A stretch of 64,000 bases of DNA from Parcubacteria group bacterium (GTDB lineage: Bacteria > Patescibacteriota > Patescibacteriia > UBA2169), in assembly GCA_016181765.1 (NCBI GenBank), contig JACOYR010000004.1:115937-179936 (forward strand). The letters are read 5' to 3'. The position numbers were made by a program, and so were the translations under genes. Below the pieces are notes generated by a model, which worked only from the letters and a program-made list of their open reading frames with translations, was not told the DNA's origin and ran no database searches. Shown one piece after another: positions 67 through 62,444 of this stretch (positions within the stretch are counted from its first letter, which is position 1; each line of letters begins with the position of its first letter).

Positions 67-102
67 CCCCCTCCTTTACCAAGGAGGGGGTCAGGGGGTG
101 GT
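67..102 (+). repeat. Palindromic GC-rich repeat copy 1 (ccccctcctt-tacc-aaggaggggg-tcagggggtggt)
   Basis: Hairpin plus conserved YNAGGGGGTGG tail; intergenic between dnaJ start and upstream ORF. Confidence 0.7.
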
Positions 103-104
103 CC

Positions 105-407
105 TTATTTCCTGTCCTCAAACCCCAAGCCGGTCTGCGTTTGCGGAGCATCTGCCGCCTTGATCTCACCAAAACGCTCTTCGTACTTTTTGATGTTATC
201 CGCAAGCGCCGCCACAATGCGCTTTAAGTGCCCGGGGCTGGTTTGTACTTTGCTTACGACCTTGCCGGAAAGCCCGGCAACGTTCATGAATACCATCATG
301 AACTCTTCCTGGGTGTGGCTCACCTGCATCATGTTCGCGTACTCACCGCCCGGGATGTTGTCCGCGATTTTAATTTCCTGCCTTTGGGGCTGCTGTTCGT
401 TTGCCAT
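105..407 (-). CDS. Hypothetical small protein (100 aa), AT-richer than surroundings
   Basis: ORF in AT-rich block inserted between dnaK and dnaJ; no recognisable motifs. Confidence 0.4.
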   Translation of the reverse strand: MANEQQPQRQEIKIADNIPGGEYANMMQVSHTQEEFMMVFMNVAGLSGKVVSKVQTSPGHLKRIVAALADNIKKYEERFGEIKAADAPQTQTGLGFEDRK

Positions 408-413
408 ATAATC

Positions 414-1124
414 TTATTTTAATATGATAGTCGGTTCAATGATTTGCTGCATCTCATAACAACCATGCGGTAATCCAGACCCATCATCAAAGCCTGTCCC
501 GCAGGCTGACGCAAAAAGCAAATAATTTCTAGAAACTAACAATGGATACCGAATGCCTCCGGCGAAACACAAATCAAAATCATTTTTAAACTGGTCCATG
601 TTAATATATCCAAGTTTATTTGGAATTGCAGTGACCTTCCAATCTCCCTCTTGTGATTGGCCGTCATAAGCAAAAGAGTATGCCGTACCCATGTCGTTCT
701 CGGTATACGCGGACAATAATTGCTGAAAATACTGCTTGTCTTTTTCTATTCCGCTCTCATTGACGTCTTTTCCAATCGTACATTCAGCGCTGTTCGCCGC
801 AAGTTCGCTCGGTTTCATGGCCTCAAGCACGGCAAAGTTTCCCTCCGACATATCAAAGTTTCTTCCCGCATCCGAATACGCAAAAGCATCTGTAGATTTC
901 TCATTTATTGATGTTTCTTTTGGGTTTAATAGACCAGGGGCTGCTTCTGATTGGCTTGACTGTCTTGGATTAGCTGATTTATTTAAAACAGAACAACCTG
1001 ACACAACAAGCACAACAAAAACCCCGATAAACAAATACAGAAAATATGCATTCATTCGTGGCTTATTTGGTTGTGCTTGTTCGTTTGCCATAATATTTTC
1101 ATTTAGACCATATTGGCTTACCAC
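414..1124 (-). CDS. Putative lipoprotein (signal peptide with LVVSGC lipobox); start probably internal (MANEQ... or MNAYF...)
   Basis: N-terminal hydrophobic stretch followed by Cys lipobox; AT-rich composition. Confidence 0.5.
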   Translation of the reverse strand: MVSQYGLNENIMANEQAQPNKPRMNAYFLYLFIGVFVVLVVSGCSVLNKSANPRQSSQSEAAPGLLNPKETSINEKSTDAFAYSDAGRNFDMSEGNFAVLEAMKPSELAANSAECTIGKDVNESGIEKDKQYFQQLLSAYTENDMGTAYSFAYDGQSQEGDWKVTAIPNKLGYINMDQFKNDFDLCFAGGIRYPLLVSRNYLLFASACGTGFDDGSGLPHGCYEMQQIIEPTIILK

Positions 1125-1545
1125 CAGCGGCCCTTATAAATTGACTAACACCTAGTTGACCTCGTACATTTCGAGCTTTTGACCCTGGCTTTTTCAATTC
1201 TTCTTCAATTTTTGACCTAGAAGCTTTGTAAATATCTGAAACCTGATACCTTTCGTCTAGAAGAACGAGTAAAGTACTGTCCCATTCTTTTGACAAGTCA
1301 ATGCTTCCTAACCGACCACCATTTATTCTTCCGCTAATGATTCTGCGAGTCTTAATCTGAATTTTTTTCTTTCCTTGTGTTGCGTCATACCCATCCTGAC
1401 GGGCAGGAGCTAAACGAAGATTAAGCAAACGACACGCTTCGTATTCACCTATCTCGCCAGTGACGCCAAGCGGACGACCAGTCAAATTATAATATCTCTT
1501 GGCTAACGATTTTATCTGACTAATCAATTTCAGTTTTTGATTCAT
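1099..1545 (-). CDS. Hypothetical protein (148 aa), possibly restriction-endonuclease-like fold
   Basis: ORF with weak D...QIK motif pattern; AT-rich; in inserted block. Confidence 0.35.
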   Translation of the reverse strand: MNQKLKLISQIKSLAKRYYNLTGRPLGVTGEIGEYEACRLLNLRLAPARQDGYDATQGKKKIQIKTRRIISGRINGGRLGSIDLSKEWDSTLLVLLDERYQVSDIYKASRSKIEEELKKPGSKARNVRGQLGVSQFIRAAGGKPIWSK

Positions 1546-1551
1546 ATCCTA

Positions 1552-1586
1552 CCACCCCCTAACCCCCTCCTCATTAGAGGAGGGGG
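1552..1586 (-). repeat. Palindromic GC-rich repeat copy 2, inverted orientation (ccaccccctaa-ccccctcctc-atta-gaggaggggg)
   Basis: Reverse complement matches the family consensus; lies just downstream of dnaK stop, may act as its terminator. Confidence 0.7.
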
Positions 1587-1596
1587 AACCAAGAGA

Positions 1597-3522
1597 TTAC
1601 TTTTTATCATCTTTCTTAACTTCCTCGTACTGGCCTTCCACGGCTTCTGACTGCTTGTCATTTGACGATGAAGCATCGGCTTTCGCGCCGGATGATGATT
1701 TGGCAGCCTCCTCCTGCGCCATCTTGTTCAGGACTTCTCCGATCTTCTGCATCTCTTTGGAGAGCTCCTCGGACGCCTTGTTAATGGCTTCCCTGTCATT
1801 CCCGTCCTGCACTTTCTTCAGAGCATCAATCTTGGCCTGGATGCCTTTTTTGACGTCATCGCCAACTTTGTCGCCTGCATCTTTCAGAGCCTTATCTGCT
1901 GTGTACGCCAACTGCTCCGCAAGGTTGCGCGATTCAATCAGCTCTTTCTTTTTCTTGTCCTCTTCCGCGTGAGTGGCAGCATCCGCCTTCATCTTTTCCA
2001 CTTCCTCCTCGGACAAGGACGTGGTTGCAGTGATGGTGATTTTTTGTTCTTTGCCGCTGGTTTTGTCTTTCGCCTTAACATTCAGGATGCCGTTCGCGTC
2101 AATGTCAAACGTCACCTCAACCTGGGGCATGCCGCGTTGAGCCGGCGGAATGCCGTCCAGAATAAAGCGGCCCAAGGTCTTGTTGTCGCTTGCCATCTGC
2201 CGCTCCCCTTGCAAGACGTGGATTTCCACTGATGTCTGGTTGTCTGCGGCAGTTGAGAAAATCTGGGACTTTGACGTAGGAATGGTGGTGTTGCGATCAA
2301 TCAAGGGCGTGCGCACCCCGCCCAACGTTTCAAGCCCGAGCGTCAGAGGCGTTACATCCAAGAGCAGAACGTCTTTGACATCCCCCTGCAGAACGCCTGC
2401 CTGCACTGCCGCGCCAAGAGCAACCACTTCATCCGGGTTGACTCCGAGATGCGGCTCCTTGCCGAAGTAGGCCTTGACCTTTGCCTGCACCAGAGGCATG
2501 CGCGTCATGCCCCCGACCAAGACCACTTCATTGATGCTGTTCGGAGTCCAGTTCGCATCAGCCATTGCCTGCTTTACCGGGCCAAACGTCTTTTCCACCA
2601 AGCCCCCCACCAGCTCCTCCAGTTTGGCGCGCGAGAGTTGCATCACCAAGTGCTTGGGGCCGTTCGCGTCAGACGTGATGTACGGCTGGTTGATTTCCGT
2701 GGTGGCGGAAGAGGAGAGTTCGTGCTTTGCCTTTTCAGCTGCTTCCTTGATGCGCTGGAGTGCCAATGGATCCTTGGAAAGGTCAACACCTTCGGCCCGT
2801 CCGAACTCATCAACAATCCATTTGATGATGATCTGGTCAAAGTCATCCCCTCCGAGGTGCGTGTCCCCGTTCGTGGCTTTCACTTCCACGGTGTCTGCGG
2901 AAACTTCCAAAAGCGAAATATCAAACGTGCCGCCGCCGAGGTCATAGACCGCGATCTTTTCGTCCTTTTTCTTATCAAACCCATACGCCAAGGCTGCTGC
3001 GGTCGGCTCGTTGATGATGCGCTTGACATCCAAGCCCGCGATCTTGCCCGCGTCCTTGGTTGCCTGGCGCTCGGAGTCGTCAAAGTACGCAGGCACGGTG
3101 ATGACTGCTTCGGTAATTTTTTCTCCCAAACGCGCTTCTGCGTCCGCTTTCAGTTTGCTCAAAATCATTGCCGAGATTTCCTGGGGCGTGTACTCCTTGT
3201 CCGACATTTTGATTTTAACCCCGTCCCCGGACTGCGTGATTTCGTACGGCACCATGCCCCGAGTCTTGGCGACTTCCGCATCCCCAAACCTGCGGCCGAT
3301 GAGGCGCTTGATGGAATACAGCGTATTGCGCGGGTTGGTGACTGCCTGGCGCTTTGCGGACTGCCCAACCAAACGCTCGCCGTTTTTGGCGATGGCAACC
3401 ATGGACGGCGTGGTTCTCGCGCCTTCCGCGTTTTCTATAATCTTCGGCTTGCCGCCCTCCACAATGGCCATTGCCGAGTTGGTGGTGCCGAGGTCTATTC
3501 CGAGAATTTTTCCCATATGCAT
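1597..3522 (-). CDS. dnaK: Molecular chaperone DnaK (Hsp70); probable true start [14 protein letters not shown] at 3516
   Basis: Full-length Hsp70 signature motifs ([30 protein letters not shown]). Confidence 0.97.
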
Positions 3523-3579: not shown

Positions 3580-3993
3580 TTACTTTGCGGCAATCTTGAT
3601 CTGCTTGGGCTTTGCGCGCTCTTCCTTGGGAATGGTGATTTTCAAAACACCATTCGTGTAATCCGCTTTCGCGCCTTCGCCGTTAACGGACGCAGGCAAG
3701 GCAACCGCGCGGTGGAATGCGCCATGCCGCACTTCCTTGCGGTAGTAGTCTTTGTCATCCACCTCTGATTCCTTCTTGGTTGCGCCCTCAATGGTGAGCA
3801 CGTCGTTTTCAACGGAGATGTTCACCTGGTCCGGATCAATGCCCGGCAAAGGCGTTTCCACGATTACGTGGTCCTTGTCCTGGTACACGTCCAGGGCAGG
3901 GACAAACCCTTGGGCGCCGCCTCCCCACTCCTCAAAGAACTTGTCAAAGTCCGAGAAGGGGTCAAGCATGGGCCGCCATCGTACGATAGACAT
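3580..3993 (-). CDS. Small heat shock protein Hsp20/alpha-crystallin family
   Basis: 137 aa with ACD domain pattern; positioned between grpE and dnaK. Confidence 0.85.
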   Translation of the reverse strand: MSIVRWRPMLDPFSDFDKFFEEWGGGAQGFVPALDVYQDKDHVIVETPLPGIDPDQVNISVENDVLTIEGATKKESEVDDKDYYRKEVRHGAFHRAVALPASVNGEGAKADYTNGVLKITIPKEERAKPKQIKIAAK

Positions 3994-4014: not shown

Positions 4015-4497
4015 TTAATGATGTGTGCCTTTAGAAACGATTACGCGGCTGGGCCGAATGAGCCTGTCTTTCATGGCGTATCCGACCTGTACTTCCTTGA
4101 TGACGTGCCCCTCGGGCACGGTTTCGGACGGCTCGTGGCCCACGGCCTCGTGCTGGTGCGGATCAAAGCGTTTGCCTTTTGATTGGACGCGCTCAATGCC
4201 CAAGGTCTCAAGCATCTCATCCCGCTCTTTTTGGACCTGGAACAAGCCCTTTGCCCACTCCGAGCTTTTGGCATCCTCGGGCAGGTGCAGAAGCGCGAGC
4301 TCAAAGTTATCAATCACCGGCATGAACTTGGCGATGATGTCCGCGGCCGCGTACTCCGCGATGCTCGCCATGCGCCTGGCGTATTCTTTTTCCAGGTTTT
4401 GGTAGTCTGCCTGGGCCCGCTTCCAGCCCGCCAGGTATTCGTCCGCCTTGGTTTGCAGTTCCACAAGCTTTGGGTCCTCGTCTTTTTTATGGTGCAT
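4015..4497 (-). CDS. grpE: Nucleotide exchange factor GrpE
   Basis: Size, coiled-coil N-terminus, C-terminal GrpE motif; operon context. Confidence 0.9.
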   Translation of the reverse strand: MHHKKDEDPKLVELQTKADEYLAGWKRAQADYQNLEKEYARRMASIAEYAAADIIAKFMPVIDNFELALLHLPEDAKSSEWAKGLFQVQKERDEMLETLGIERVQSKGKRFDPHQHEAVGHEPSETVPEGHVIKEVQVGYAMKDRLIRPSRVIVSKGTHH

Positions 4498-4500
4498 AAT

Positions 4501-5175
4501 TTACGAAAGTAATGTTTTGATGTGCTTCAAAAACGCAATGTTCCGGCCGTAATCCATGCGCATGGGCCCGAGCATGCCGATCACCATGCCGCCTCGGGCG
4601 AGCGTCAGCACGCTTGCGCACTCATCGCCGAACGGGTTGTCGCTGCCGAGCAGAACCGAGATGTCGTCATCCAGCATGGCCCCAATACCGGACATCACCT
4701 CATCCAAGTGGTCAATAATCCGCGAGATGCCCACCACGCTGTCGTGATCCGTGAATTCCGGCTTGGCAAAGATGTTGGAGAGGCCCGTGTAGAACACGTT
4801 GTTCGGGTTGAACCCCACGACCACGGCTTCGCCCGAAAGCTCGGCTCCCTTTTTGGCGACTGCTTTGATGCCGTCCACGGACGTGCTGCCCCACGCCTCG
4901 GAAAGAGCTTTCTGGTGCTTCGGAGAAAGCGCCCTCTCCGGCAGCATCTGCTGGATGTATAAGCGGTACCCGGCTTCAGTCGGGATCCTGCCCGCCGAGG
5001 TGTGGGGGTGCGTGATAAACCCTTCCCGCTCCAGCTCCTGCATCCAGTTGCGCACCGTTGGCCCGGAAACATCCTTGAAACAGTGCTCCGCGATAAACGC
5101 CGAACCAACCGGCAGAGCGGTTTTTACGTGCGATTCAATGATATGGCGTAAAAGCTCTTTTTGGCGCTCATCCAT
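4501..5175 (-). CDS. hrcA: Heat-inducible transcription repressor HrcA
   Basis: N-terminal winged-helix HrcA signature (ELLRHIIESHVKTALPVGS); first gene of chaperone operon. Confidence 0.9.
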   Translation of the reverse strand: MDERQKELLRHIIESHVKTALPVGSAFIAEHCFKDVSGPTVRNWMQELEREGFITHPHTSAGRIPTEAGYRLYIQQMLPERALSPKHQKALSEAWGSTSVDGIKAVAKKGAELSGEAVVVGFNPNNVFYTGLSNIFAKPEFTDHDSVVGISRIIDHLDEVMSGIGAMLDDDISVLLGSDNPFGDECASVLTLARGGMVIGMLGPMRMDYGRNIAFLKHIKTLLS

Positions 5176-5199: not shown

Positions 5200-5226
5200 T
5201 TATCACTCGTCAAGGGTGAGTGATAA
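5200..5226 (-). promoter_or_regulatory. CIRCE-like operator TTATCACTC-N9-GAGTGATAA upstream of hrcA
   Basis: Perfect 9-bp inverted repeat with 9-bp spacer, one mismatch per arm to CIRCE consensus TTAGCACTC-N9-GAGTGCTAA. Confidence 0.6.
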
Positions 5227-9465: not shown

Positions 9466-11043
9466 ATGCCTTCCATCACCCAGCCAATCCAGGCGCTGGT
9501 CCAGGCCGCGCTCGCTTCCAAGCGCGAGCAGGACATTGACCCGCAGGAGCCCAAAATAGCCATTCCCACGCGCGCGGCGGCCGCGAGTTTTGTGTATGAG
9601 CGCATGCGGAACGCGGTTGACTACAAAGAAGAGCACCTCATCCGCCGCAACGCCATTGAGCGCATTTTGCGCAGGATGCTCTCCCAAGGAGAGCGCGAGA
9701 ATATCGCGGAGAACCTGGTATACGAACTCATCCACGCGCGCTATTTGCCGAACAACGCCATCCCCCAACGCAAACTCGGGGACCTGAAAAAAATCTTTGA
9801 CAAGTACGTTGCCATTCTCGGGTTTGCGCATCTCAAAGACGCGGCTGATCGCGCGAGCCTGCCCGGATTCATGCTCGGGATATTTGCCACGGAGGTTGAT
9901 GAATTTTTGGTGCCTCCGCACGTGATGCACGCGTCCATCAACGCCATGTACGAGTCTATGGACCGGCACATGCACATTGAGCGCGCGGGCATTCCGCCCG
10001 AGGACCGCGCGAAACAGATTTACCTGGCCGCATCGCGCGCCCTCTACAAGAACGACAACGACACGCTCGCCTACCACTTGATGCTCGTCTACTGCCCGCG
10101 CTGGAGAAACGCGGACCCAAGCCTCATCCGGGACGTGGGCGCGCGCCTGGAGGAACTGCGGCAAAAAATCAGCGCGGACCTGAACCACCCGCTCAAAGAA
10201 AAACTCGCGGCCGCCCTGCGCAAGCGCGTGGCGTACTTCGCCATAGTGCGCGACATCATTGTAGGCGATCCGAGCAACGCCTGGCACGACCTGCAAACTC
10301 CAGGCCTTGCGTTTGAAGCGCGCATCCGCGAGCGGTGCGGAGAAAACTACAAAGCGTCCCGCACGAGCCTCCACCGATCCATCACGCGCTCCATCATCTA
10401 CCTCGTCATCACCAAGTTCCTGCTGTTCCTGGTGCTGGAAATTCCGGTTGACTACTTCATCATGAAGCACTTCGCCCTTGCACCCATTGCCATCAACCTC
10501 CTGTTCCCGCCGAGCCTGCTCGCCATCATTGCGCTCTCCACTAAGCTGCCGGACGAAAAAAACACGGACCTCATCGTAACGGGCATCCAGGACATTGTGG
10601 AGGGCCGCGGGGATCTGGTGCAGGTCGCGAAGAGCGCCCGGCGGAGCCTGGTGCGCGGGGCCGTGTTTATCGTGCTCTATGCCATGCTCTTCGCGGTCTC
10701 GTTCGGACTCCTCATCTATATTTTGCAGCTTTTGGAGTTTACCGCGGTCTCTATTTTGGTCTTCCTCTTTTTCCTATCCTTGGTTTCTTTGTTTGCGTAC
10801 CGCATTCGGCTCGCAAACCAGGAGTTGATTGTGACCCCGCCCAAGCGCGGCATGTTCCGCGCGCTGTGGAGCTTTTTTACGCTGCCGGTGCTGCACGCGG
10901 GCAAGTGGATGTCCACACGCTTTGCCCATATCAACGTATTTATTTTTGTGCTGGACTTTGTGATTGAAGCGCCGTTCAAAGCCTTCATCAAAGTGATTGA
11001 GGAATGGATGAATTATGTGTACGAGAAAAAGGAGGAGATTTAG
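9466..11043 (+). CDS. Hypothetical integral membrane protein (525 aa; cytoplasmic N-domain plus C-terminal multi-TM region)
   Basis: Long ORF with coding-like composition and multiple hydrophobic helices; start adjacent to tRNA is uncertain. Confidence 0.45.
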   Translation: MPSITQPIQALVQAALASKREQDIDPQEPKIAIPTRAAAASFVYERMRNAVDYKEEHLIRRNAIERILRRMLSQGERENIAENLVYELIHARYLPNNAIPQRKLGDLKKIFDKYVAILGFAHLKDAADRASLPGFMLGIFATEVDEFLVPPHVMHASINAMYESMDRHMHIERAGIPPEDRAKQIYLAASRALYKNDNDTLAYHLMLVYCPRWRNADPSLIRDVGARLEELRQKISADLNHPLKEKLAAALRKRVAYFAIVRDIIVGDPSNAWHDLQTPGLAFEARIRERCGENYKASRTSLHRSITRSIIYLVITKFLLFLVLEIPVDYFIMKHFALAPIAINLLFPPSLLAIIALSTKLPDEKNTDLIVTGIQDIVEGRGDLVQVAKSARRSLVRGAVFIVLYAMLFAVSFGLLIYILQLLEFTAVSILVFLFFLSLVSLFAYRIRLANQELIVTPPKRGMFRALWSFFTLPVLHAGKWMSTRFAHINVFIFVLDFVIEAPFKAFIKVIEEWMNYVYEKKEEI

Positions 11044-15729: not shown

Positions 15730-16668
15730 CTACGTTTTTTGTATAATGCGCAGCTTGGCGCTCCGCGAAGGCTTGTTCGCGAGCGCCTCGGCGCGGGTTG
15801 GTTTCTTGACTTTCTTGTTTACCAGGGTGATGGTTGGCGCTTGGGCGCGCGCCGCATCCCTAAAAAAGAATTTCACGATGCGGTCCTCCAGGGAATGGAA
15901 CGATAATACCGCCATGCGCCCGCCCGGAGCGAGCAGCGAAACCAGCTCGGGCAGGGCCCTCTTGAGGTTTTCCAATTCACCGTTGGTAGCTATGCGCAGA
16001 GCCTGGAAAATGCGGGTAGCGGGGTGGATGCGGTACCTACCGCGCCCTCCGGCTCCGCGCACAACTACGTCTGCCAGTTCTCGGGTGGTGTTGATGGGCG
16101 CGCGCTTGCGCGCAGCGGCTATTGCCTGTGCTGCGCGAGCGGCGTGCCGCTCTTCACCATATTCGGTGAATATTCGTTCCAGAGATTTCTCTGGCCAGGT
16201 GTTCACTATCTCGCGCGCGGTTAGCGTCCCCTGGTCAGAAAACCTCATGTCTAGCGGTCCTTCAGTGTTGAAACTAAATCCTCTAGACTCGTCTTTGAGT
16301 TGATCGCGAGATACACCCAGATCCAGTAGTACAGCGCTAACCGGATAAAATCGTTGTTCATACGCAATTCGTTTTGTTTCGGTATAATTTGCTTGTTTGA
16401 AGATGACTCTCTTTGCTTCCCCCTCCTTTGTCCTCAAGGAGGGGGCGAGGGGGTGGTTGTACTTTGCAAGGCGTTTTTGTGAACGCCCGATCGCGTCCTG
16501 GTCCCAGTCAATGGCGAGGAGCCTCCCGTTTGGGGCCGTTGCGTTAAGGATCGCTTCCGCGTGTCCCCCTCCGCCCACGGTTGCATCTATGACAAGCGCT
16601 CCGGGTTTCAAATTAAGCCCATTAACTGCCTCCTCAAGCATGACGGGAATTTGTAGGGATTCACTCAT
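15730..16668 (-). CDS. rsmH: 16S rRNA (cytosine1402-N4)-methyltransferase RsmH, containing an in-frame palindromic-repeat insertion
   Basis: RsmH motifs (DATVGGGGH, LLDLGVS, GFSF); repeat copy 4 at 16419-16457 translates as NHPLAPSLRTKEGEA. Confidence 0.9.
   Translation of the reverse strand: MSESLQIPVMLEEAVNGLNLKPGALVIDATVGGGGHAEAILNATAPNGRLLAIDWDQDAIGRSQKRLAKYNHPLAPSLRTKEGEAKRVIFKQANYTETKRIAYEQRFYPVSAVLLDLGVSRDQLKDESRGFSFNTEGPLDMRFSDQGTLTAREIVNTWPEKSLERIFTEYGEERHAARAAQAIAAARKRAPINTTRELADVVVRGAGGRGRYRIHPATRIFQALRIATNGELENLKRALPELVSLLAPGGRMAVLSFHSLEDRIVKFFFRDAARAQAPTITLVNKKVKKPTRAEALANKPSRSAKLRIIQKT
16419..16457 (+). repeat. Palindromic repeat copy 4, located inside rsmH coding sequence in frame
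   Basis: ccccctcctt-tgtcctc-aaggaggggg-cgagggggtggt matches family consensus. Confidence 0.7.
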
Positions 16669-17380: not shown

Positions 17381-17456
17381 ATTCCCCCTCCTTGATTTAA
17401 GGAAGGCTTGACTAAACATTCCCCCTCCTTGATAAGGAGGGGGTTAGGGGGTGGTA
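17381..17456 (+). repeat. Palindromic repeat copy 5 with partial tandem duplication, upstream of mraZ
   Basis: cattccccctccttgat occurs twice (17380 and 17418); second unit completes aaggaggggg-ttagggggtggt. Confidence 0.65.
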
Positions 17457-17489
17457 AAAAAAAAGCCAATCCATGTAGGTCTGGATTGG
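17453..17489 (-). terminator. Rho-independent terminator (hairpin gccaatcca...tggattggc followed by T-run on minus strand)
   Basis: 9-bp stem plus poly-T on minus strand, downstream of small membrane protein gene. Confidence 0.5.
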
Positions 17490-17666
17490 CCGTGGTATAT
17501 CTGCAACGGCGGCGCTTGACTTTGTCAAGGTCCACGTTGGTAAGGAGGCGGTAACGCGCCTGCTGCGCCATGGGCCCCGTCCCCTTGCGGGGCTTAGCTA
17601 CGGACGAAGAACAACTGGCTTGTCAGTCCCGCGCCAGCTTCGGTTTGTAGCGGAGTAGATGACTCC

Positions 17667-20289: not shown

Positions 20290-21176
20290 TACTCACCTCC
20301 CTTTCGGGTTGGGGTTATCCTGCGTTGAGGTTGAACAACGTCAGTCACATCATCCTTAAACCCCCCGTGCTCGCGCGGCCAATCGTGGATGGCATTCACA
20401 AGCGTGTCATAGGGATAGATAAACTCTTCACCGCGCCGTGTGCCAGGATCATTGGTGATAAACTGCGTTGGCGTGTACCCGCGGATGATGAGCATGTGGT
20501 ACAGGGGCCCGTCTCCGGTAAAATTTGGGTTCCCGAGCATCCGGCCCGCAGCAGGGATAATGACGAGCTTGTTTGATGAGATGCGGCGCTTGATGTTATC
20601 AACGCTCACATCATCATCCAGCACTGCGGAACCCTTAAAATATTCCTGCCAGATGAACGCCACTTCTGCGGCTGTGGTGTCTTCGTAGTACCCGAACGTA
20701 TTCTGCTCCCAGGCAACCAGTTCTCTGATTGCCTCATCCATTTGTTCCGCGGACAAACTCTCGCCGAAAAAAAATCTATCAGCCATGATAAGGGACGCTT
20801 CTTCGCACGCTTCCTGATAGGGCAATGACCAATCAGCATGCGGAGCTTGGGATTGGAACGGGACCGCAAGGTTGTACTCAACCGGAATTCCCCCTCCTGT
20901 AACTCCGGGGTCCCCAGAAACTGCCGAAGGCATTTCTGGGGTGGAACTGAGGGGGACGGGGGGTGGTGACGCGCCCTCGCTGTCATTGCGAGGAGCCCCG
21001 TCCGGCGCATCATTAAGATTGCTTCGCTCCCCCGCCGAATCGGCGGGTTCGCTCGCAATGACATCAGAGTATGGAACAGCCTCCGGCAAACCAGGCTCTT
21101 GGTTTGCATACCAAATAATTACAGCCCCTATAATGACGATAATTACAAAAATTTTTTTCATAAAAAAGTTATCCAC
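20289..21176 (-). CDS. Membrane-anchored secreted C39-like peptidase domain protein with low-complexity linker containing an in-frame repeat copy
   Basis: N-terminal TM, candidate Cys (EACEEAS) and His (YHMLIIRGY) of C39_2-like fold; repeat at 20890-20968 encodes PPPVPLSS...GGGI. Confidence 0.5.
   Translation of the reverse strand: MDNFFMKKIFVIIVIIGAVIIWYANQEPGLPEAVPYSDVIASEPADSAGERSNLNDAPDGAPRNDSEGASPPPVPLSSTPEMPSAVSGDPGVTGGGIPVEYNLAVPFQSQAPHADWSLPYQEACEEASLIMADRFFFGESLSAEQMDEAIRELVAWEQNTFGYYEDTTAAEVAFIWQEYFKGSAVLDDDVSVDNIKRRISSNKLVIIPAAGRMLGNPNFTGDGPLYHMLIIRGYTPTQFITNDPGTRRGEEFIYPYDTLVNAIHDWPREHGGFKDDVTDVVQPQRRITPTRKGGE
20890..20968 (+). repeat. Palindromic repeat copy 6, expanded by ~50-bp internal insert, inside C39-like peptidase gene
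   Basis: ccccctcct ... gagggggacggggggtggtg flank an inner hairpin ccagaaa..ttctgg. Confidence 0.55.
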
Positions 21177-22169: not shown

Positions 22170-22208
22170 ATTTTGGGTGCAAGCAGTTTTTTCTGCTATA
22201 ATTTAGAT

Positions 22209-23165
22209 ATGCCGAAAATACATAAAAAAAGAAAAACGGTACTGGAACTTTGCGCGGGCGGTGGTGGACAATTTTTAGGATTAGAAGGGGCGGGATTTGA
22301 TTGTGTCGGCGCTGTTGAAATAGAGGAAGAGTATTGCCGAACTCTTACGCACAACCGACCCGGCCTAAACGTTATAAATTACGATTTAAAGCAATTTAAT
22401 GCGAAAAATTTTTTAGGGGTTGATTTAGTCGCAGGCGGGGTTCCCTGTCCTCCATTTTCCATTGCGGGCAAACAGCTAGGACAAAAGGACGATAGAGATT
22501 TATTTCCCTATGCGCTCAAAATAATAGGGCAAGCCGACCCAAAAGCGGTATTGCTTGAAAATGTTCCCGGCCTGGCTTCGGCAAAATTTGCAACCTACAG
22601 AAGAAATATTCAAAAAAAATTAACTGATTTGGGTTATTGGTCTGATTGGAAAATATTAAATGCTTCCGATTTTGGGGTGCCGCAATTGAGGCCTAGATTT
22701 ATATTGGTGGCGGTAAAAAACGGATTAAAAAATTTTTTTGAATGGCCGAGGACTCTCTCAACTAAAGTTACGGTTGGAGAAGCCCTCTTTGATTTAATGT
22801 CAGCCAATGGCTGGACAGGCGCGCATAAGTGGTTGAAAAAAGCAAACAATGTCGGCCCAACCTTAGTGGGAGGTTCAAAAAAACACGGCGGGCCTGATTT
22901 GGGGCCAACACGAGCGCGAGAGCAATGGAAAAATTTGGGAGTTGACGGATTAGGCATTGCCGATTCTGCTCCGGAAATAAAATTTCCACATAACAAACTA
23001 CCAAGGTTGACCGTGCGCATGACTGCCCGTATCCAGGGCTTCCCGGATTCCTGGCATTTTCCGGGGCGAAAAACTTCATCATACAGGCAAATTGGCAACG
23101 CTTTTCCACCCGCAGTCGCCAAAGCAGTTGGGTTTAGAATCATCAAAGCCATCCAAACAACATGA
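22209..23165 (+). CDS. DNA (cytosine-5)-methyltransferase (type II R-M, M subunit)
   Basis: Motif I LELCAGGGG, motif IV GGVPCPPFS, motif VI ENVPGL; AT-rich island. Confidence 0.9.
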   Translation: MPKIHKKRKTVLELCAGGGGQFLGLEGAGFDCVGAVEIEEEYCRTLTHNRPGLNVINYDLKQFNAKNFLGVDLVAGGVPCPPFSIAGKQLGQKDDRDLFPYALKIIGQADPKAVLLENVPGLASAKFATYRRNIQKKLTDLGYWSDWKILNASDFGVPQLRPRFILVAVKNGLKNFFEWPRTLSTKVTVGEALFDLMSANGWTGAHKWLKKANNVGPTLVGGSKKHGGPDLGPTRAREQWKNLGVDGLGIADSAPEIKFPHNKLPRLTVRMTARIQGFPDSWHFPGRKTSSYRQIGNAFPPAVAKAVGFRIIKAIQTT

Positions 23166-23734
23166 AAAGAGACAGGGAGAAAGGATCAAAACAAAAAATT
23201 CTTGATTTCCTTACCGATAATATCGGGAAAGTCGTAAACTCAAAGGAAATTCAAGAGGCTTCTGGCTGGGCCGCTGAATGGGCACGGCGCGTCCGTGAGC
23301 TGCGCGATGAACAGGGGTATCAAATTCTGTCGCACAAAGACCGCGCTGATTTGAAGCCAGGACAGTACATAATGGCCACCAAAAAAAGAAAACCGGCTTT
23401 TGCTCGCGGCATTTCCAAGGAAACAAAAGCTATAGTGTTGGAAAGAAACGGTTTTACCTGTCAAAGCTGCGGCTTAGCAGCAGGCGATCCCGACCCTTTT
23501 CACACTGGCAGGACTATCCGCCTTACTATGGGCCATATTATTGATAAATCAAAAGGCGGTCCAGATTCTCCCGAAAATTTAAAAGCTATGTGTACAAACT
23601 GTAACGAAGGATTACAGAATGCCGCCCTACCAAAACCCAATACAGTCCAGCTTCTGGCGCAGGTCAGAAGAGGCACCATTGAGAGTCAACAAGCCGTTCT
23701 TGATTGGCTTATAAAAAAATACAAAAAGCATTAA
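23162..23734 (+). CDS. HNH endonuclease, probable cognate restriction enzyme (ATGA start/stop overlap with methyltransferase)
   Basis: CxxC...H-N..CxxC HNH motif (CQSCG...GHIIDKSKGG...NLKAMCTNCN) preceded by wHTH-like domain. Confidence 0.75.
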   Translation: MKRDREKGSKQKILDFLTDNIGKVVNSKEIQEASGWAAEWARRVRELRDEQGYQILSHKDRADLKPGQYIMATKKRKPAFARGISKETKAIVLERNGFTCQSCGLAAGDPDPFHTGRTIRLTMGHIIDKSKGGPDSPENLKAMCTNCNEGLQNAALPKPNTVQLLAQVRRGTIESQQAVLDWLIKKYKKH

Positions 23735-23743
23735 CACTAGTAC

Positions 23744-24202
23744 ATGCAAGTTCACAATCCCGATTACTATAACGTTGCGCTCAAAATTATCTTAAAAAAT
23801 AAAAAAGGGAAAATTTTAGTACTCAAAAACGCCGAAGAGACCGGGGAAGGTGATTATTATGATATGCCCGGGGGTAGAATTAACACGGATGAATTTACCA
23901 CTCCATATGAAACACTTATTGACCGAGAATTAAAAGAGGAGATTGGAGGAGATGTAAAATATAAATTATCGCTTGATCCAGTTTCGTTTGGGCGACATGA
24001 ATATTTTTCTGTACGTCAAAAAAAAGAAATCCGCGTATTCTACCTGCTCTTTGAGGCAGAATATATTGCAGGTGTCCCCATAGTATCTCATGAGCACAGC
24101 GGCTATAAATGGTTGCGCCTAGAAAATATTCCATTTGAAAAATACTTTATAAAGGGAATGCTTGAGTCTGTGAAGCGATACGCGGCAAATCAAAAATCTT
24201 GA
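23744..24202 (+). CDS. NUDIX hydrolase
   Basis: Nudix box GGRINTDEFTTPYETLIDRELKEEIG. Confidence 0.85.
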   Translation: MQVHNPDYYNVALKIILKNKKGKILVLKNAEETGEGDYYDMPGGRINTDEFTTPYETLIDRELKEEIGGDVKYKLSLDPVSFGRHEYFSVRQKKEIRVFYLLFEAEYIAGVPIVSHEHSGYKWLRLENIPFEKYFIKGMLESVKRYAANQKS

Positions 24203-45285: not shown

Positions 45286-45912
45286 TTACAGCGTCTTTAT
45301 CACTCCTTCAATTTTCTCTCGATCGGCCGTATTAAAATGACAGGTATCAATAAAGTGAGTATATTTTCCCGGCTCAACAGACAGCTCTCCAGCTACATAC
45401 CGTTGCAATGCCACGAACTCATTCATATTCATGAGCAGCTTTCCATAACAATCACTGGCACGCATATGTACGTGAATATCAAGCTTTCCGTCAATAATCT
45501 GAAACCATAGGATCTGTAAGCAAGGAGCTATGGATCCATGAATATCCACTTCTTGTTTCCAAATAGAGGCTTGCGCTCGTTTTCCGTTTGGTTTTTCTCT
45601 GAGATATTCAATAACATTTTGAATTTGATTTGGCTCACTGTCAAACAGGCGTTTGCGATATATCTTGGTCCAGTCATGGGTTACTTGATCTGCATGCTCA
45701 CCTGTCAGTAAGTAGTGGCTAATAGTATCTACCTGGCCTTTCGGCATACCAAAACGAATATCAAACAAATCTTGAATCGCATCTTCTACCTCAATAATCA
45801 TCGCTTCATCGCGGAATATTTCGTCATTCTCCGTGGCGCGGCCATTGTTATACAAGTCTTTCATGGCTTTTCGCCATGCCTGGCTGATAGTTGCTGTTTT
45901 TATGGTAAGCAT
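45286..45912 (-). CDS. Short thymidylate synthase-like protein (ThyA fold, methanogen-type size, 208 aa)
   Basis: SIAPCLQILWFQIIDGKLDIHVHMRASD aligns with ThyA catalytic-Cys segment (APCHxxxQFYVxDGKLSCQLYQRSxD); AT-rich. Confidence 0.55.
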   Translation of the reverse strand: MLTIKTATISQAWRKAMKDLYNNGRATENDEIFRDEAMIIEVEDAIQDLFDIRFGMPKGQVDTISHYLLTGEHADQVTHDWTKIYRKRLFDSEPNQIQNVIEYLREKPNGKRAQASIWKQEVDIHGSIAPCLQILWFQIIDGKLDIHVHMRASDCYGKLLMNMNEFVALQRYVAGELSVEPGKYTHFIDTCHFNTADREKIEGVIKTL

Positions 45913-61160: not shown

Positions 61161-62408
61161 CTATATATTTGAAACCAGCTCTGTTTCTTTTGCGCCGCGC
61201 TTTTTGGCTTCAATCTTGCCTTTGGTCTTGGGGCTTATGACGAGCCGGGTTGGAATGCCGATTAAATCCGCATCTGCGAACTTTTCCGCGTTGGACGCTT
61301 CACGCCTATCATCCCATAACACTTCTTTTCCGCCCGCGGCCAGCGACTCGTACACTTTTTCGGACTGCTGGTATACTGCATCATCATCGCCCAAGCTAAC
61401 CAGGTGATAAGCAAAAGGCGCAACTTCCTCGGGCCAGATGATGCCATGCTCGTCATGGTGCACTTCCACGATCGCGCCCATTAAACGGGAGATGCCGATG
61501 CCATAGCAGCCGATGATGACCTCTTTTGATTTCCCGCTTTCATCCGTAAACTTGAGGCCGAAATCTTTGGAAAACTTGGTTCCCAAATCAAAGATATTTC
61601 CGACTTCAATAGTCTTGAGCTCTTTGACGGGTGTGCCGCAGTCAGGGCACGCCACCCCCCCTTTCTTCCCCCCCTTACCAAGGGGGGGATTGAGGGGTGG
61701 TAGATTTGCGATTTCCTTATTTTGCGCAAACCCGCAATCGCACGCAAAAATCACATCTTCCCCGTTCTCGGTTGCAACCTGGAACTCGTGCGAGTACTCT
61801 TTGGTGAATGACCCGCCCGATGCCTCGGTGATGATCGCGTCCAAGCCGCAGCGCTTGAAAACTTTTGCGTACGCGCCTTTCGCCTTTTCGTAGTATAGCT
61901 TGAGATCTTCGGCAGACGCGTGGAAGCTGTACAAATCTTTCATCAAAAATTCGCGGCCGCGCAGCAACCCGGCTTTGGCGCGCAGCTCATCCCTGAACTT
62001 GGTCTGAATCTGGTACCAGGCCCGCGGCAAATCGCGGTAGGAATTAATGTGCTTTTTGGCCAAAGGCACAATCACCTCTTCGTGGGTCGGGCCCAGGGCG
62101 TACTCGGATCCCGCGCGCGAGGGAACTTTGAACAGCACGTCCATGCTGTCCCATCGCCCGGTCTTCTGCCAGTTCTCTTTGGGGTGCAGGGCGGGCAGGG
62201 AAACTTCCTGCCCGTTGATTGCATCCATCTCCTCGCGCACAATAGCGCTGATATTTTCCAGAACCCGGACGCCTAATGGCAGGTATGAATACACGCCCGC
62301 CATCAACTGGTCAACAAACCCGGCGCGCACTAAAAAATTGTGGTTTGCGCTCTGCGCGCTCCCCTCGCCGGTTTTGCTTGTTTTGCTGAAGAGAAGCGAC
62401 TGCCGCAT
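61161..62408 (-). CDS. proS: Prolyl-tRNA synthetase, minimal form lacking editing insertion, with in-frame palindromic-repeat insertion between two Cys pairs
   Basis: ProRS class II motifs (MRQSLLFSKT, FRDE, SFH); repeat copy 7 encodes LPPLNPPLGKGGKKGGV. Confidence 0.9.
   Translation of the reverse strand: MRQSLLFSKTSKTGEGSAQSANHNFLVRAGFVDQLMAGVYSYLPLGVRVLENISAIVREEMDAINGQEVSLPALHPKENWQKTGRWDSMDVLFKVPSRAGSEYALGPTHEEVIVPLAKKHINSYRDLPRAWYQIQTKFRDELRAKAGLLRGREFLMKDLYSFHASAEDLKLYYEKAKGAYAKVFKRCGLDAIITEASGGSFTKEYSHEFQVATENGEDVIFACDCGFAQNKEIANLPPLNPPLGKGGKKGGVACPDCGTPVKELKTIEVGNIFDLGTKFSKDFGLKFTDESGKSKEVIIGCYGIGISRLMGAIVEVHHDEHGIIWPEEVAPFAYHLVSLGDDDAVYQQSEKVYESLAAGGKEVLWDDRREASNAEKFADADLIGIPTRLVISPKTKGKIEAKKRGAKETELVSNI
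61654..61703 (+). repeat. Palindromic repeat copy 7 inside proS coding sequence
   Basis: cccccccttaccaaggggggg-attgaggggtggtag, family consensus with C/G-homopolymer stem. Confidence 0.65.
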
Positions 62409-62444
62409 ATAGGGATATTCTACCACGCACGCTCTAAAAATCAA

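Follow-up and report, generated by a model that had tools for sequence, protein, structure and literature searches.

How two inverted copies of a short palindromic repeat came to lie at the two ends of a group of genes inside a heat-shock operon is the question raised by a stretch of 64,000 nucleotides (nt) from a Parcubacteria group bacterium (assembly GCA_016181765.1, contig JACOYR010000004.1, positions 115,937 to 179,936), which at its full length we call the window. On its minus strand, the reading of open reading frames (ORFs) and Pfam families gives the order hrcA, grpE, hsp20, dnaK, a 148-amino-acid (aa) ORF, a lipoprotein ORF, a 100-aa ORF and dnaJ. The same order had been recognized in a first-pass annotation of the sequence, which regarded the three ORFs as an AT-rich block inserted between dnaK and dnaJ and proposed that the repeats had mediated the insertion or marked its recombination boundaries. 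We assign a probability of about 0.7 to a different history, in which triplex-type motifs inserted separately at a hotspot in a native operon and the foreign genes now found there were acquired independently, not delivered by the repeats.

Native and foreign genes between dnaK and dnaJ

The two bracketing repeats (copies 1 and 2) are 38 nt each, 87% complementary and 1448 nt apart. They are inverted, with their GGGGGTGG tails pointing inward, an arrangement that the first-pass annotation had described. The order dnaK-repeat-DUF6998-lipoprotein-DUF3467 (DUF6998 and DUF3467 being the families of the 148-aa and 100-aa proteins) recurs in 7 independent Logan assemblies from different sequencing runs, with 100% protein identity, and it is therefore not an assembly artefact or a chimera. 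The contigs of the independent short-read Logan assemblies L001 to L003 stop 34 nt past the DUF3467 stop, within copy 1, which is the behavior expected of a multi-copy repeat in the source genome.

Windowed GC content falls to 0.38 to 0.44 over positions ~300 to 1650, compared to 0.51 to 0.62 beyond. At the level of single genes, the DUF6998 gene (GC 0.40; GC at third codon positions [GC3] 0.30, z score −3.2) and the lipoprotein gene (GC 0.41, GC3 0.37, z −2.6) are clearly atypical against the window mean GC3 of 0.65 (standard deviation, 0.11), whereas the DUF3467 gene (GC 0.53, GC3 0.69, z +0.4) is similar to dnaK and grpE, so that an AT-rich composition applies to two of the three ORFs and not to the third.

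Relatives were taken from a DnaK-anchored scan of species representatives, which places the window within Patescibacteria, near Komeilibacteria-like lineages. The closest relative with readable flanks, CG10_46_32 (L008), has a DnaK 91 to 92% identical and presents dnaK, 33 nt, DUF3467 and dnaJ, the DUF3467 stop and the dnaJ start overlapping as TAATG; its dnaK-dnaJ interval contains no repeat, no DUF6998 gene and no lipoprotein gene. DUF3467 also lies between dnaK and dnaJ in L014, L015, L016, L069, L070 and others, and many of the relatives with this arrangement have no repeats. Since it occupies this place in so many relatives, DUF3467 is native, and only two genes were inserted. Foreign DNA did enter between dnaK and dnaJ, as first supposed, but not as a three-gene block, and the empty site, which was expected to hold a single repeat copy, is tightly packed and holds none.

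The repeats themselves are separate insertions of 40 to 76 nt. Copy 1 alone corresponds to a ~46-nt insertion between the DUF3467 stop and the dnaJ start. Copy 3 is a 42-nt in-frame insertion in rsmH that adds the 14 residues HPLAPSLRTKEGEA, absent from 9 close RsmH homologs, including that of CG10_46_32, and present in one 85%-identical homolog. Copy 4, together with a degenerate half copy, forms a ~76-nt insertion upstream of mraZ compared to CG10_46_32, in which both the rsmH and the mraZ-upstream sites are empty of the motif. Motif-bearing lineages surround the motif-free CG10_46_32 in the DnaK tree, either through repeated gain at the same junctions or through precise loss at four sites in this one lineage; repeated gain is simpler.

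The two foreign genes differ in their affiliations. The 148-aa protein is a predicted PD-(D/E)XK restriction-endonuclease-like protein, and its AlphaFold2 model (pLDDT 90) finds its best Foldseek matches in NhoI, the N-terminal domain of Eco15I, and PvuII, the first two being methylation-dependent restriction endonucleases. Its top non-self homolog is just 56% identical, and homologs occur in Pseudomonas, Ralstonia and others in genomic-island settings. The motif is missing at 6 of the 6 DUF6998 homolog loci examined in other organisms, and we therefore discarded DUF6998 as a motif-associated gene and regard it as ordinary island cargo. The lipoprotein belongs to no Pfam family. A search of 1.84 billion representatives gave 234 homologs, the best of them 49% identical, and hardly any match its N terminus; the family is small and scattered.

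The point of entry of the lipoprotein gene can be read from its 5' end. The first 12 codons of the ORF (MANEQAQPNKPR) come from the former 5' end of DUF3467: the ORF opens with MANEQAQPNK, and DUF3467 of CG10_46_32 starts with M-T-D-AQPNK. The true start of the lipoprotein is probably an internal ATG at 1055, judging from the lipobox that follows (MNAYFLYLFIGVFVVLVVSGC). Moreover, a direct repeat of 28 nt (82% identity, spacing of 684 nt, extending to ~44 nt) flanks the lipoprotein body. It follows that the lipoprotein gene entered the first ~10 codons of DUF3467. No reverse copy or motif remnant is present between DUF6998, the lipoprotein gene and DUF3467, and the inner junction of the foreign DNA is not at a copy of the motif. 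The repeats do mark a recombination-prone, variable spot, which bears out part of the first-pass annotation, but they are not supported as the boundaries of a block.

Other lineages of the clade show that the spot is variable. Every relative that bears the motif has a different dnaK-dnaJ interval, and motif-free relatives have a compact one; in L009, L011, L012 and L013, the interval contains two to four copies or variants together with differing cargo. In L009, a forward copy after dnaK is followed by a duplicated dnaK 3' end, an ORF without known function and a DUF3467 gene truncated by a degenerate copy, and further on by a SET-domain gene and then a DUF559 gene between two copies. L011 presents a forward copy, a RidA-like gene, DUF3467 and a reverse copy, and then a forward copy, DUF559 and a reverse copy. 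L012 has four copies in alternating orientation and a small AT-rich ORF, and in L013, a diverged variant flanks a DUF559 gene. The junctions of dnaK, DUF3467 and dnaJ are a recurrent landing and instability site in this clade.

In several loci, duplications of gene ends of ~45 to 50 nt adjoin the insertions, and they may be a signature of the insertion mechanism. They include the dnaK 3' end beside a motif copy (L009:2400-2590), the 3' end of Escherichia coli ycjD beside a BoxC-like copy (L214:7300-7480, minus strand), a gene end and reverse copy in tandem (L161:8560-8660) and, in the window, the DUF3467 5' end around the lipoprotein gene.

In the history that we favor, elements of ~40 nt would have entered the window lineage after its split from the CG10_46_32 lineage. 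They would have landed at either end of native DUF3467, within rsmH and upstream of mraZ, and the bracketing by copies 1 and 2 would then result from two insertions, one at each end of a native gene, and not from a transposon. The DUF6998 and lipoprotein genes would have been acquired horizontally at this unstable spot, the former placed in the dnaK-DUF3467 spacer and the latter in the beginning of DUF3467, whose start would have been regenerated by the ~44-nt duplication. From published work on the E. coli triplex motif (TM), we infer that a hairpin or triplex in single-stranded DNA may stall replication or provoke breaks and so promote the capture of foreign DNA, and unrelated foreign genes may pile up beside the copies because motif sites would be prone to polymerase stalling and rearrangement.

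The tolerance of copy 1 ahead of dnaJ may have a translational explanation. On the gene strand, its G-rich arm provides the GGAGG Shine-Dalgarno sequence of dnaJ, 7 to 10 nt upstream of the ATG; the hairpin (−21 kcal/mol) holds this GGAGG in its 3' arm, and its 5' arm starts 15 nt, and the motif 2 nt, past the DUF3467 stop. Ribosomes terminating on DUF3467 could open the hairpin that holds the ribosome-binding site, which would preserve the ancestral translational coupling to dnaJ and would account for the persistence of the insertion. The coordinates of the features are collected in Table 1.

Table 1. Coordinates of the operon genes, repeats and motif copies in the window and of DUF559 genes flanked by motif copies at other loci
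Feature	Position	Strand	Remarks
dnaJ, 5' end (MAKDYYQILGVSKSANQDE...)	1-59	minus	first 19 codons; leaves the window
Triplex-motif copy 1	65-102	plus	between DUF3467 stop and dnaJ start; absent from L008 junction; C-rich arm 67-76, loop 77-80, G-rich arm 81-90, linker TCA 91-93, mirror tail GGGGGTGGT 94-102
DUF3467 gene (100 aa), native operon member	105-407	minus	Pfam PF11950; host-like GC3; relatives
Direct repeat copy B	394-421		start region of the functional DUF3467 gene
Lipoprotein ORF, foreign gene 2	414-1091	minus	GC3; no Pfam family
Direct repeat copy A	1078-1105		duplicated DUF3467 translation start region; similarity runs on to ~1062
DUF6998 gene (148 aa), foreign gene 1	1099-1545	minus	Pfam PF22522; GC3
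Triplex-motif copy 2	1551-1588	minus	8 nt past dnaK stop, 5 nt ahead of DUF6998 start; absent in L008; on the plus strand, tail complement ACCACCCCC 1551-1559, linker 1560-1562, arms 1563-1572 and 1577-1586, loop 1573-1576
dnaK	1597-3522	minus
hsp20	3580-3993	minus
grpE	4015-4497	minus
hrcA	4501-5175	minus
Triplex-motif copy 3	16419-16457	plus	within rsmH (15730-16668, minus)
Triplex-motif copy 4 and degenerate half copy	17384-17455	plus	upstream of mraZ; copy 4 at 17421-17455, half copy at 17384-17410
Fifth, variant triplex-type element	61651-61700	plus	within prolyl-tRNA synthetase ORF (61161-62444, minus), in frame
Motif-flanked DUF559	L011:10080-10545
Motif-flanked DUF559	L161:8540-9100
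Motif-flanked DUF559	L170:7560-8060
Motif-flanked DUF559	L101:60-560
Motif-flanked DUF559	L218:600-1250
Motif-flanked DUF559	L223:330-1060
Motif-flanked DUF559	L214:7040-7840		E. coli K-12

Repeat anatomy and the BoxC/PIT/TM class

The window contains four canonical copies of the repeat and one variant. Each canonical copy is built of a pyrimidine arm, a complementary purine arm and a second G-rich block, with arms of 10 nt, loops of 3 to 7 nt, a 3-nt linker and a 9-nt tail. On the G-rich strand, the consensus reads CCCCCTCCTx for the first arm, a 3- to 4-nt loop, yAGGAGGGGG for the purine arm, a linker TYA and the tail GGGGGTGGT. The hairpin pattern CCCCCTCC-N3-12-GGAGGGGG occurs 4 times in the 64 kb, against 0.00 expected from 100 shuffles; a match with 3 mismatches at 20948-20966 was rejected as a motif copy. 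In RNA, these 10-bp hairpins are stable, at −19 to −30 kcal/mol with z scores of −1.9 to −3.7, and no Rfam family was found, either in the whole window at the gathering threshold or in permissive searches around the copies.

The fifth element, in the prolyl-tRNA synthetase (ProRS) gene proS, reads TTCCCCCCC-TTACC-AAGGGGGGGA-TTG-AGGGGTGGT and carries in addition a complementary tail on the opposite side, so that both tails are present. It is situated between two Cys pairs (CDCG...CPDCG), the place of the INS domain in bacterial ProRS enzymes. Like copy 3 in rsmH, it is probably an in-frame occupant of an essential gene.

The tail mirrors the purine arm AGGAGGGGG, T standing in place of A, and is not an inverted repeat of the C-rich arm. 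For this reason, we rejected Watson-Crick pairing between tail and C-rich arm for this variant; in E. coli BoxC, whose arm is mirror-symmetric, such pairing is possible. By the pairing rules, the tail can return along the hairpin as a third strand and complete an antiparallel purine-motif triplex of G·G:C and T·A:T triads: the 8 scanned triads and, by reading, all 9 tail positions are canonical in every canonical copy.

Covariation shows that the mirror relation is conserved independently of any particular sequence. In loci picked via dnaK and not via the motif, with no sequence fixed and at most 1 mismatch allowed, a mirror tail follows 25 of the 123 pyrimidine/purine hairpins with non-symmetric arms, and a direct-repeat tail follows none (0/123). 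At least 10 distinct arm sequences occur, each with its own matching mirror tail. Furthermore, the tenth stem pair, next to the loop, is found as all four Watson-Crick types and is paired in 99 of 110 copies, compared to the ~37% that we estimate would be expected from how often each base occurs in the two columns; the base that follows the tail tracks this pair (G after G in 37/40; T or A after A in 35/50).

A single Patescibacteria-like locus (L086:170-480 and 9700-10140) is a compact natural covariation series, with 7 triplex-type elements of 4 arm sequences, each with its matching mirror tail. About half of the 141 copies from L088 to L207 and the window begin the C-rich arm with T (TCCCCTCC...), giving a T·G closing pair only on the G-rich strand, and the T:G wobbles at the tenth pair favor the same strand (5 cases versus 1 or 2). 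Since both features favor it, the G-rich strand is suggested to be the strand that folds.

The motif is dispersed well beyond the window. We counted 192 copies in 128 loci, in either orientation, with close doublets arranged tail to tail (15) or hairpin to hairpin (~20), and a scan of metagenome contigs for the purine arm and tail returned at least 120 stretches in contigs of 29 to 70% GC.

On these sequence grounds, the repeats are copies of the known intrastrand-triplex class described as BoxC, PIT element or TM, in a new sequence variant and a new phylum. Earlier work on motifs of this class, in E. coli and other bacteria, is reportedly that of Bergler (1992), Bachellier, and Hoyne and Maher (2000). 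The published E. coli BoxC sequences show the same three blocks, and the window motif shares with BoxC, PIT and the E. coli triplex motif TM_ECO the succession, on one strand, of a C-rich arm, a complementary G-rich arm and a second, G-rich mirror block, a first loop of 3 to 6 nt and a second of 3 nt (often TTA), a length of ~37 to 39 nt, dispersal in multiple copies in either orientation, often as close inverted pairs, and placement where close relatives differ. For TM_ECO, triplex formation was shown in vitro, and no mobility function was found near the motifs (Holder et al. 2015, PMC4666352); TM_ECO likewise occurs in inverted pairs, and significantly more rearrangement was found around TM loci among E. 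coli strains (PMC4666352).

The window motif differs from TM_ECO in the sequence of its blocks (CCCCCTCCT / AGGAGGGGG / GGGGGTGGT versus CCCTCNCCC / GGGNGAGGG / GGGNGAGGG), and its copies do not match the TM_ECO pattern CCCTCNCCC-N3-6-GGGNGAGGG-N3-GGGNGAGGG. It is of the same class, a class II purine motif, but forms a separate sequence subfamily. The host is different too, belonging to Patescibacteria, or the candidate phyla radiation (CPR), and the exact window variant is what recurs in the contigs of 29 to 70% GC. Moreover, while TM_ECO was reported to be always intergenic, in the window an essential gene is occupied in frame in at least one case and probably in two. With H-DNA and triplex fragile sites, the motif has in common a purine-rich, triplex-capable mirror repeat and a tie to polymerase stalling and rearrangement; it differs in its intrastrand three-block design with a G/T third strand and in being a discrete element of variable copy number rather than a long homopurine tract.

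In-frame occupation of genes by short repeats has a parallel in the Rickettsia palindromic elements, which insert in frame into protein genes and are tolerated as extra peptide loops. These short palindromic repeats are, however, 100 to 150 bp long and known from a single lineage, and they are not known to have the triplex design or an associated nuclease gene.

DUF559 genes flanked by motif copies

At other loci, small genes of the DUF559 family (Vsr-like nuclease, ~120 aa) sit between forward and reverse copies of the motif. All 5 of the tail-inward pairs spaced 355 to 559 nt apart enclose a DUF559 gene, and 15 pairs spaced 14 to 56 nt are empty doublets. Motif copies or co-varying variants flank 3 of the 3 DUF559 genes in dnaK-anchored loci and likewise those of 3 of 3 independent, DUF559-anchored loci. 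Motif-flanked DUF559 genes occur in hosts ranging from Patescibacteria to high-GC bacteria. In E. coli K-12, a BoxC-like copy forms the end of the DUF559 gene ycjD; after it come a duplicate of the ycjD 3' end, a canonical TM_ECO and fabI. The ycjD gene is accessory, being present in 3378 of 5426 complete E. coli genomes, with the adjacent TM locus in 3394; in a spread sample, and confounded by phylogroup, genomes with the ycjD locus have 13 to 29 TM places (n = 37), compared to 1 to 20, half of them with 4 or fewer, in those without it (n = 22).

The association of motif and DUF559 looks solid in the loci examined and suggests DUF559 as a candidate mobilizing enzyme. No DUF559 gene is present in the 64-kb window, and no close ortholog from the source metagenome-assembled genome was among the DUF559 homologs. 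Literature searches returned no paper linking DUF559 to a repeat and nothing relevant on the motif sequence or on boxC with RAYT; the flanking of DUF559 by triplex motifs was not found in the TM literature searched.

It is possible to hypothesize, tentatively and at somewhat less than even odds, that small selfish cassettes encoding the DUF559 nuclease have the triplex motifs as their terminal inverted repeats or as their homing target, that solo copies, inverted doublets of ~100 bp and in-frame insertions, copies 1 and 2 included, are non-autonomous derivatives of these cassettes, and that YcjD is the missing BoxC-associated enzyme. As to direction, the nuclease may be what spreads the motifs; alternatively, motif doublets may serve as homing sites for the cassettes, or the decay of cassettes may leave solo motifs behind as relics.

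The arrangement recalls REP elements (repetitive extragenic palindromes) and REPINs, which are likewise short hairpin repeats forming inverted doublets of ~100 bp and flanking, as inverted copies, a single-copy gene, DUF559 being in the positional role of RAYT. We rejected an assignment to REP/REPIN with RAYT, as no GTAG or CGTC head is present in 141 copies and the flanked genes in the loci examined are DUF559, which is a Vsr-like PD-(D/E)XK nuclease and not an HUH Y1 transposase. In addition, the mirror tail is without a REP counterpart, and the motif is conserved across very distant organisms, whereas REPs are species-specific.

Alternative histories and meaning of the locus

Several points weigh against a history of separate insertions, and some of them favor the alternative that repeats, cargo and DUF3467 allele were swapped between lineages as one interval, by recombination at the repeats or by homologous recombination between conserved flanking dnaK and dnaJ sequences. 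Three lineages (the window, L011 and, in degenerate form, L009) share one layout with differing cargo, in which dnaK is followed by a forward copy and DUF3467 is followed or interrupted by a reverse copy; independent insertions do not fully explain this regularity, which recombinational transfer of the whole interval could produce. The window and L011 have the same reverse-copy hairpin after DUF3467, the motif has a patchy distribution over the DnaK tree, and L009 carries a duplicate of the dnaK 3' end next to the motif. The DUF3467 core of the window resembles that of L015 (90%) slightly more than that of CG10_46_32 (82%), which is weakly compatible with an exchange of the interval. Furthermore, triplex formation by this variant is deduced from sequence rules and covariation, and the evidence on repeats and mobilizing genes covers 64 kb of the source genome.

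We nonetheless consider an exchange of the interval unlikely. The GC3 of DUF3467 (0.69) is host-like, unlike that of the low-GC putative donors, copies are near-identical across very distant contigs, so that copy identity shows no shared descent, the flanks of the copies do not align between lineages, and no recombinase is present. A horizontal replacement of DUF3467 alone was set aside, the evidence for it being weak.

A role of the repeats as RNA-level regulators of the heat-shock operon, as a terminator or attenuator after dnaK and a thermosensor or ribosome-binding-site-sequestering hairpin before dnaJ, would agree with the stability of the hairpins in RNA and with the GGAGG held by the copy before dnaJ, but we judge it very improbable. 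The same element occurs in rsmH, upstream of mraZ and in more than 120 unrelated metagenomic contexts, and the corresponding operon of the closest relative lacks it. It has no U-tract and no Rfam match, and a stem of −21 kcal/mol is too stable for a thermometer. The operon has its own operator, since a CIRCE-like inverted repeat, TTATCACTC-N9-GAGTGATAA, lies at 5200-5226, immediately upstream of hrcA, where it would be the expected HrcA operator. In E. coli, PIT elements showed no promoter or terminator activity in earlier work of Maher's group, and purine-motif triplexes do not form in RNA (PMC4666352).

Least probable of all is a transposon-like unit with copies 1 and 2 as terminal inverted repeats that brought in all three genes, for although the 38-nt copies are inverted, with inward tails, 1.45 kb apart, enclose partly AT-rich DNA and flank single genes as inverted pairs elsewhere, the enclosed DUF3467 is native and of host composition, the empty site of CG10_46_32 holds no repeat and already contradicts it, no transposase or integrase is encoded (Pfam gives DUF6998, nothing and DUF3467), no direct target duplication exists (the shared outer GGTT merely extends the inverted repeat), the lipoprotein junction lies within DUF3467 and not at a repeat, and DUF6998 homologs occur elsewhere without the motif. 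The proposal that the repeats had mediated the insertion of the block was abandoned on the same evidence.

Other classes were also considered for the repeats and rejected: a miniature inverted-repeat transposable element or other transposon bounded by terminal inverted repeats, as DUF3467 persists at the empty site and in many relatives; a CIRCE operator (TTAGCACTC-N9-GAGTGCTAA) or RNA thermometer, as the CIRCE-like site is elsewhere, the hairpins are strong and the contexts include non-heat-shock ones; and an integron attC site, as the copies are inverted, lack the GTTRRRY core and have no integrase in the operon.

Elsewhere in the window, a second AT-rich island (22173-24202, GC3 0.33 to 0.42) encodes a C5 cytosine DNA methylase, an HNH endonuclease and a NUDIX protein and is without a flanking triplex motif; it is probably an acquired restriction-modification module. 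A thymidylate-synthase-like ORF (45286-45912) of low GC3 (0.40) may also be foreign. Just upstream of copy 4, a GC-rich stretch of ~210 nt (17456-17665, minus strand) ends in a strong hairpin and a T-run; CG10_46_32 (L215) keeps its 3' part, terminator hairpin included. Compared with shuffles, the stretch folds somewhat better (z −2.5); it matches no Rfam family and may be an unannotated small RNA.

Separate insertions of the motif, with independent acquisition of the foreign genes, correct the picture of the locus, from a three-gene mobile element to a native dnaK-DUF3467-dnaJ operon invaded by small, putatively triplex-forming repeats, one of which is adjoined by the two foreign genes. A link of TM-type motifs to locally unstable genome regions has been reported (Holder et al. 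2015, PMC4666352). The sequence evidence extends the BoxC/PIT/TM class to bacteria of the CPR, and covariation over many sequence variants shows its mirror third strand to be conserved. Elements of this type can, moreover, occupy essential genes in frame, in rsmH and probably in proS. The origin of BoxC-type repeats is a question that dates from the 1990s, and the DUF559 link, if true, would provide a testable answer to how they arose and spread.

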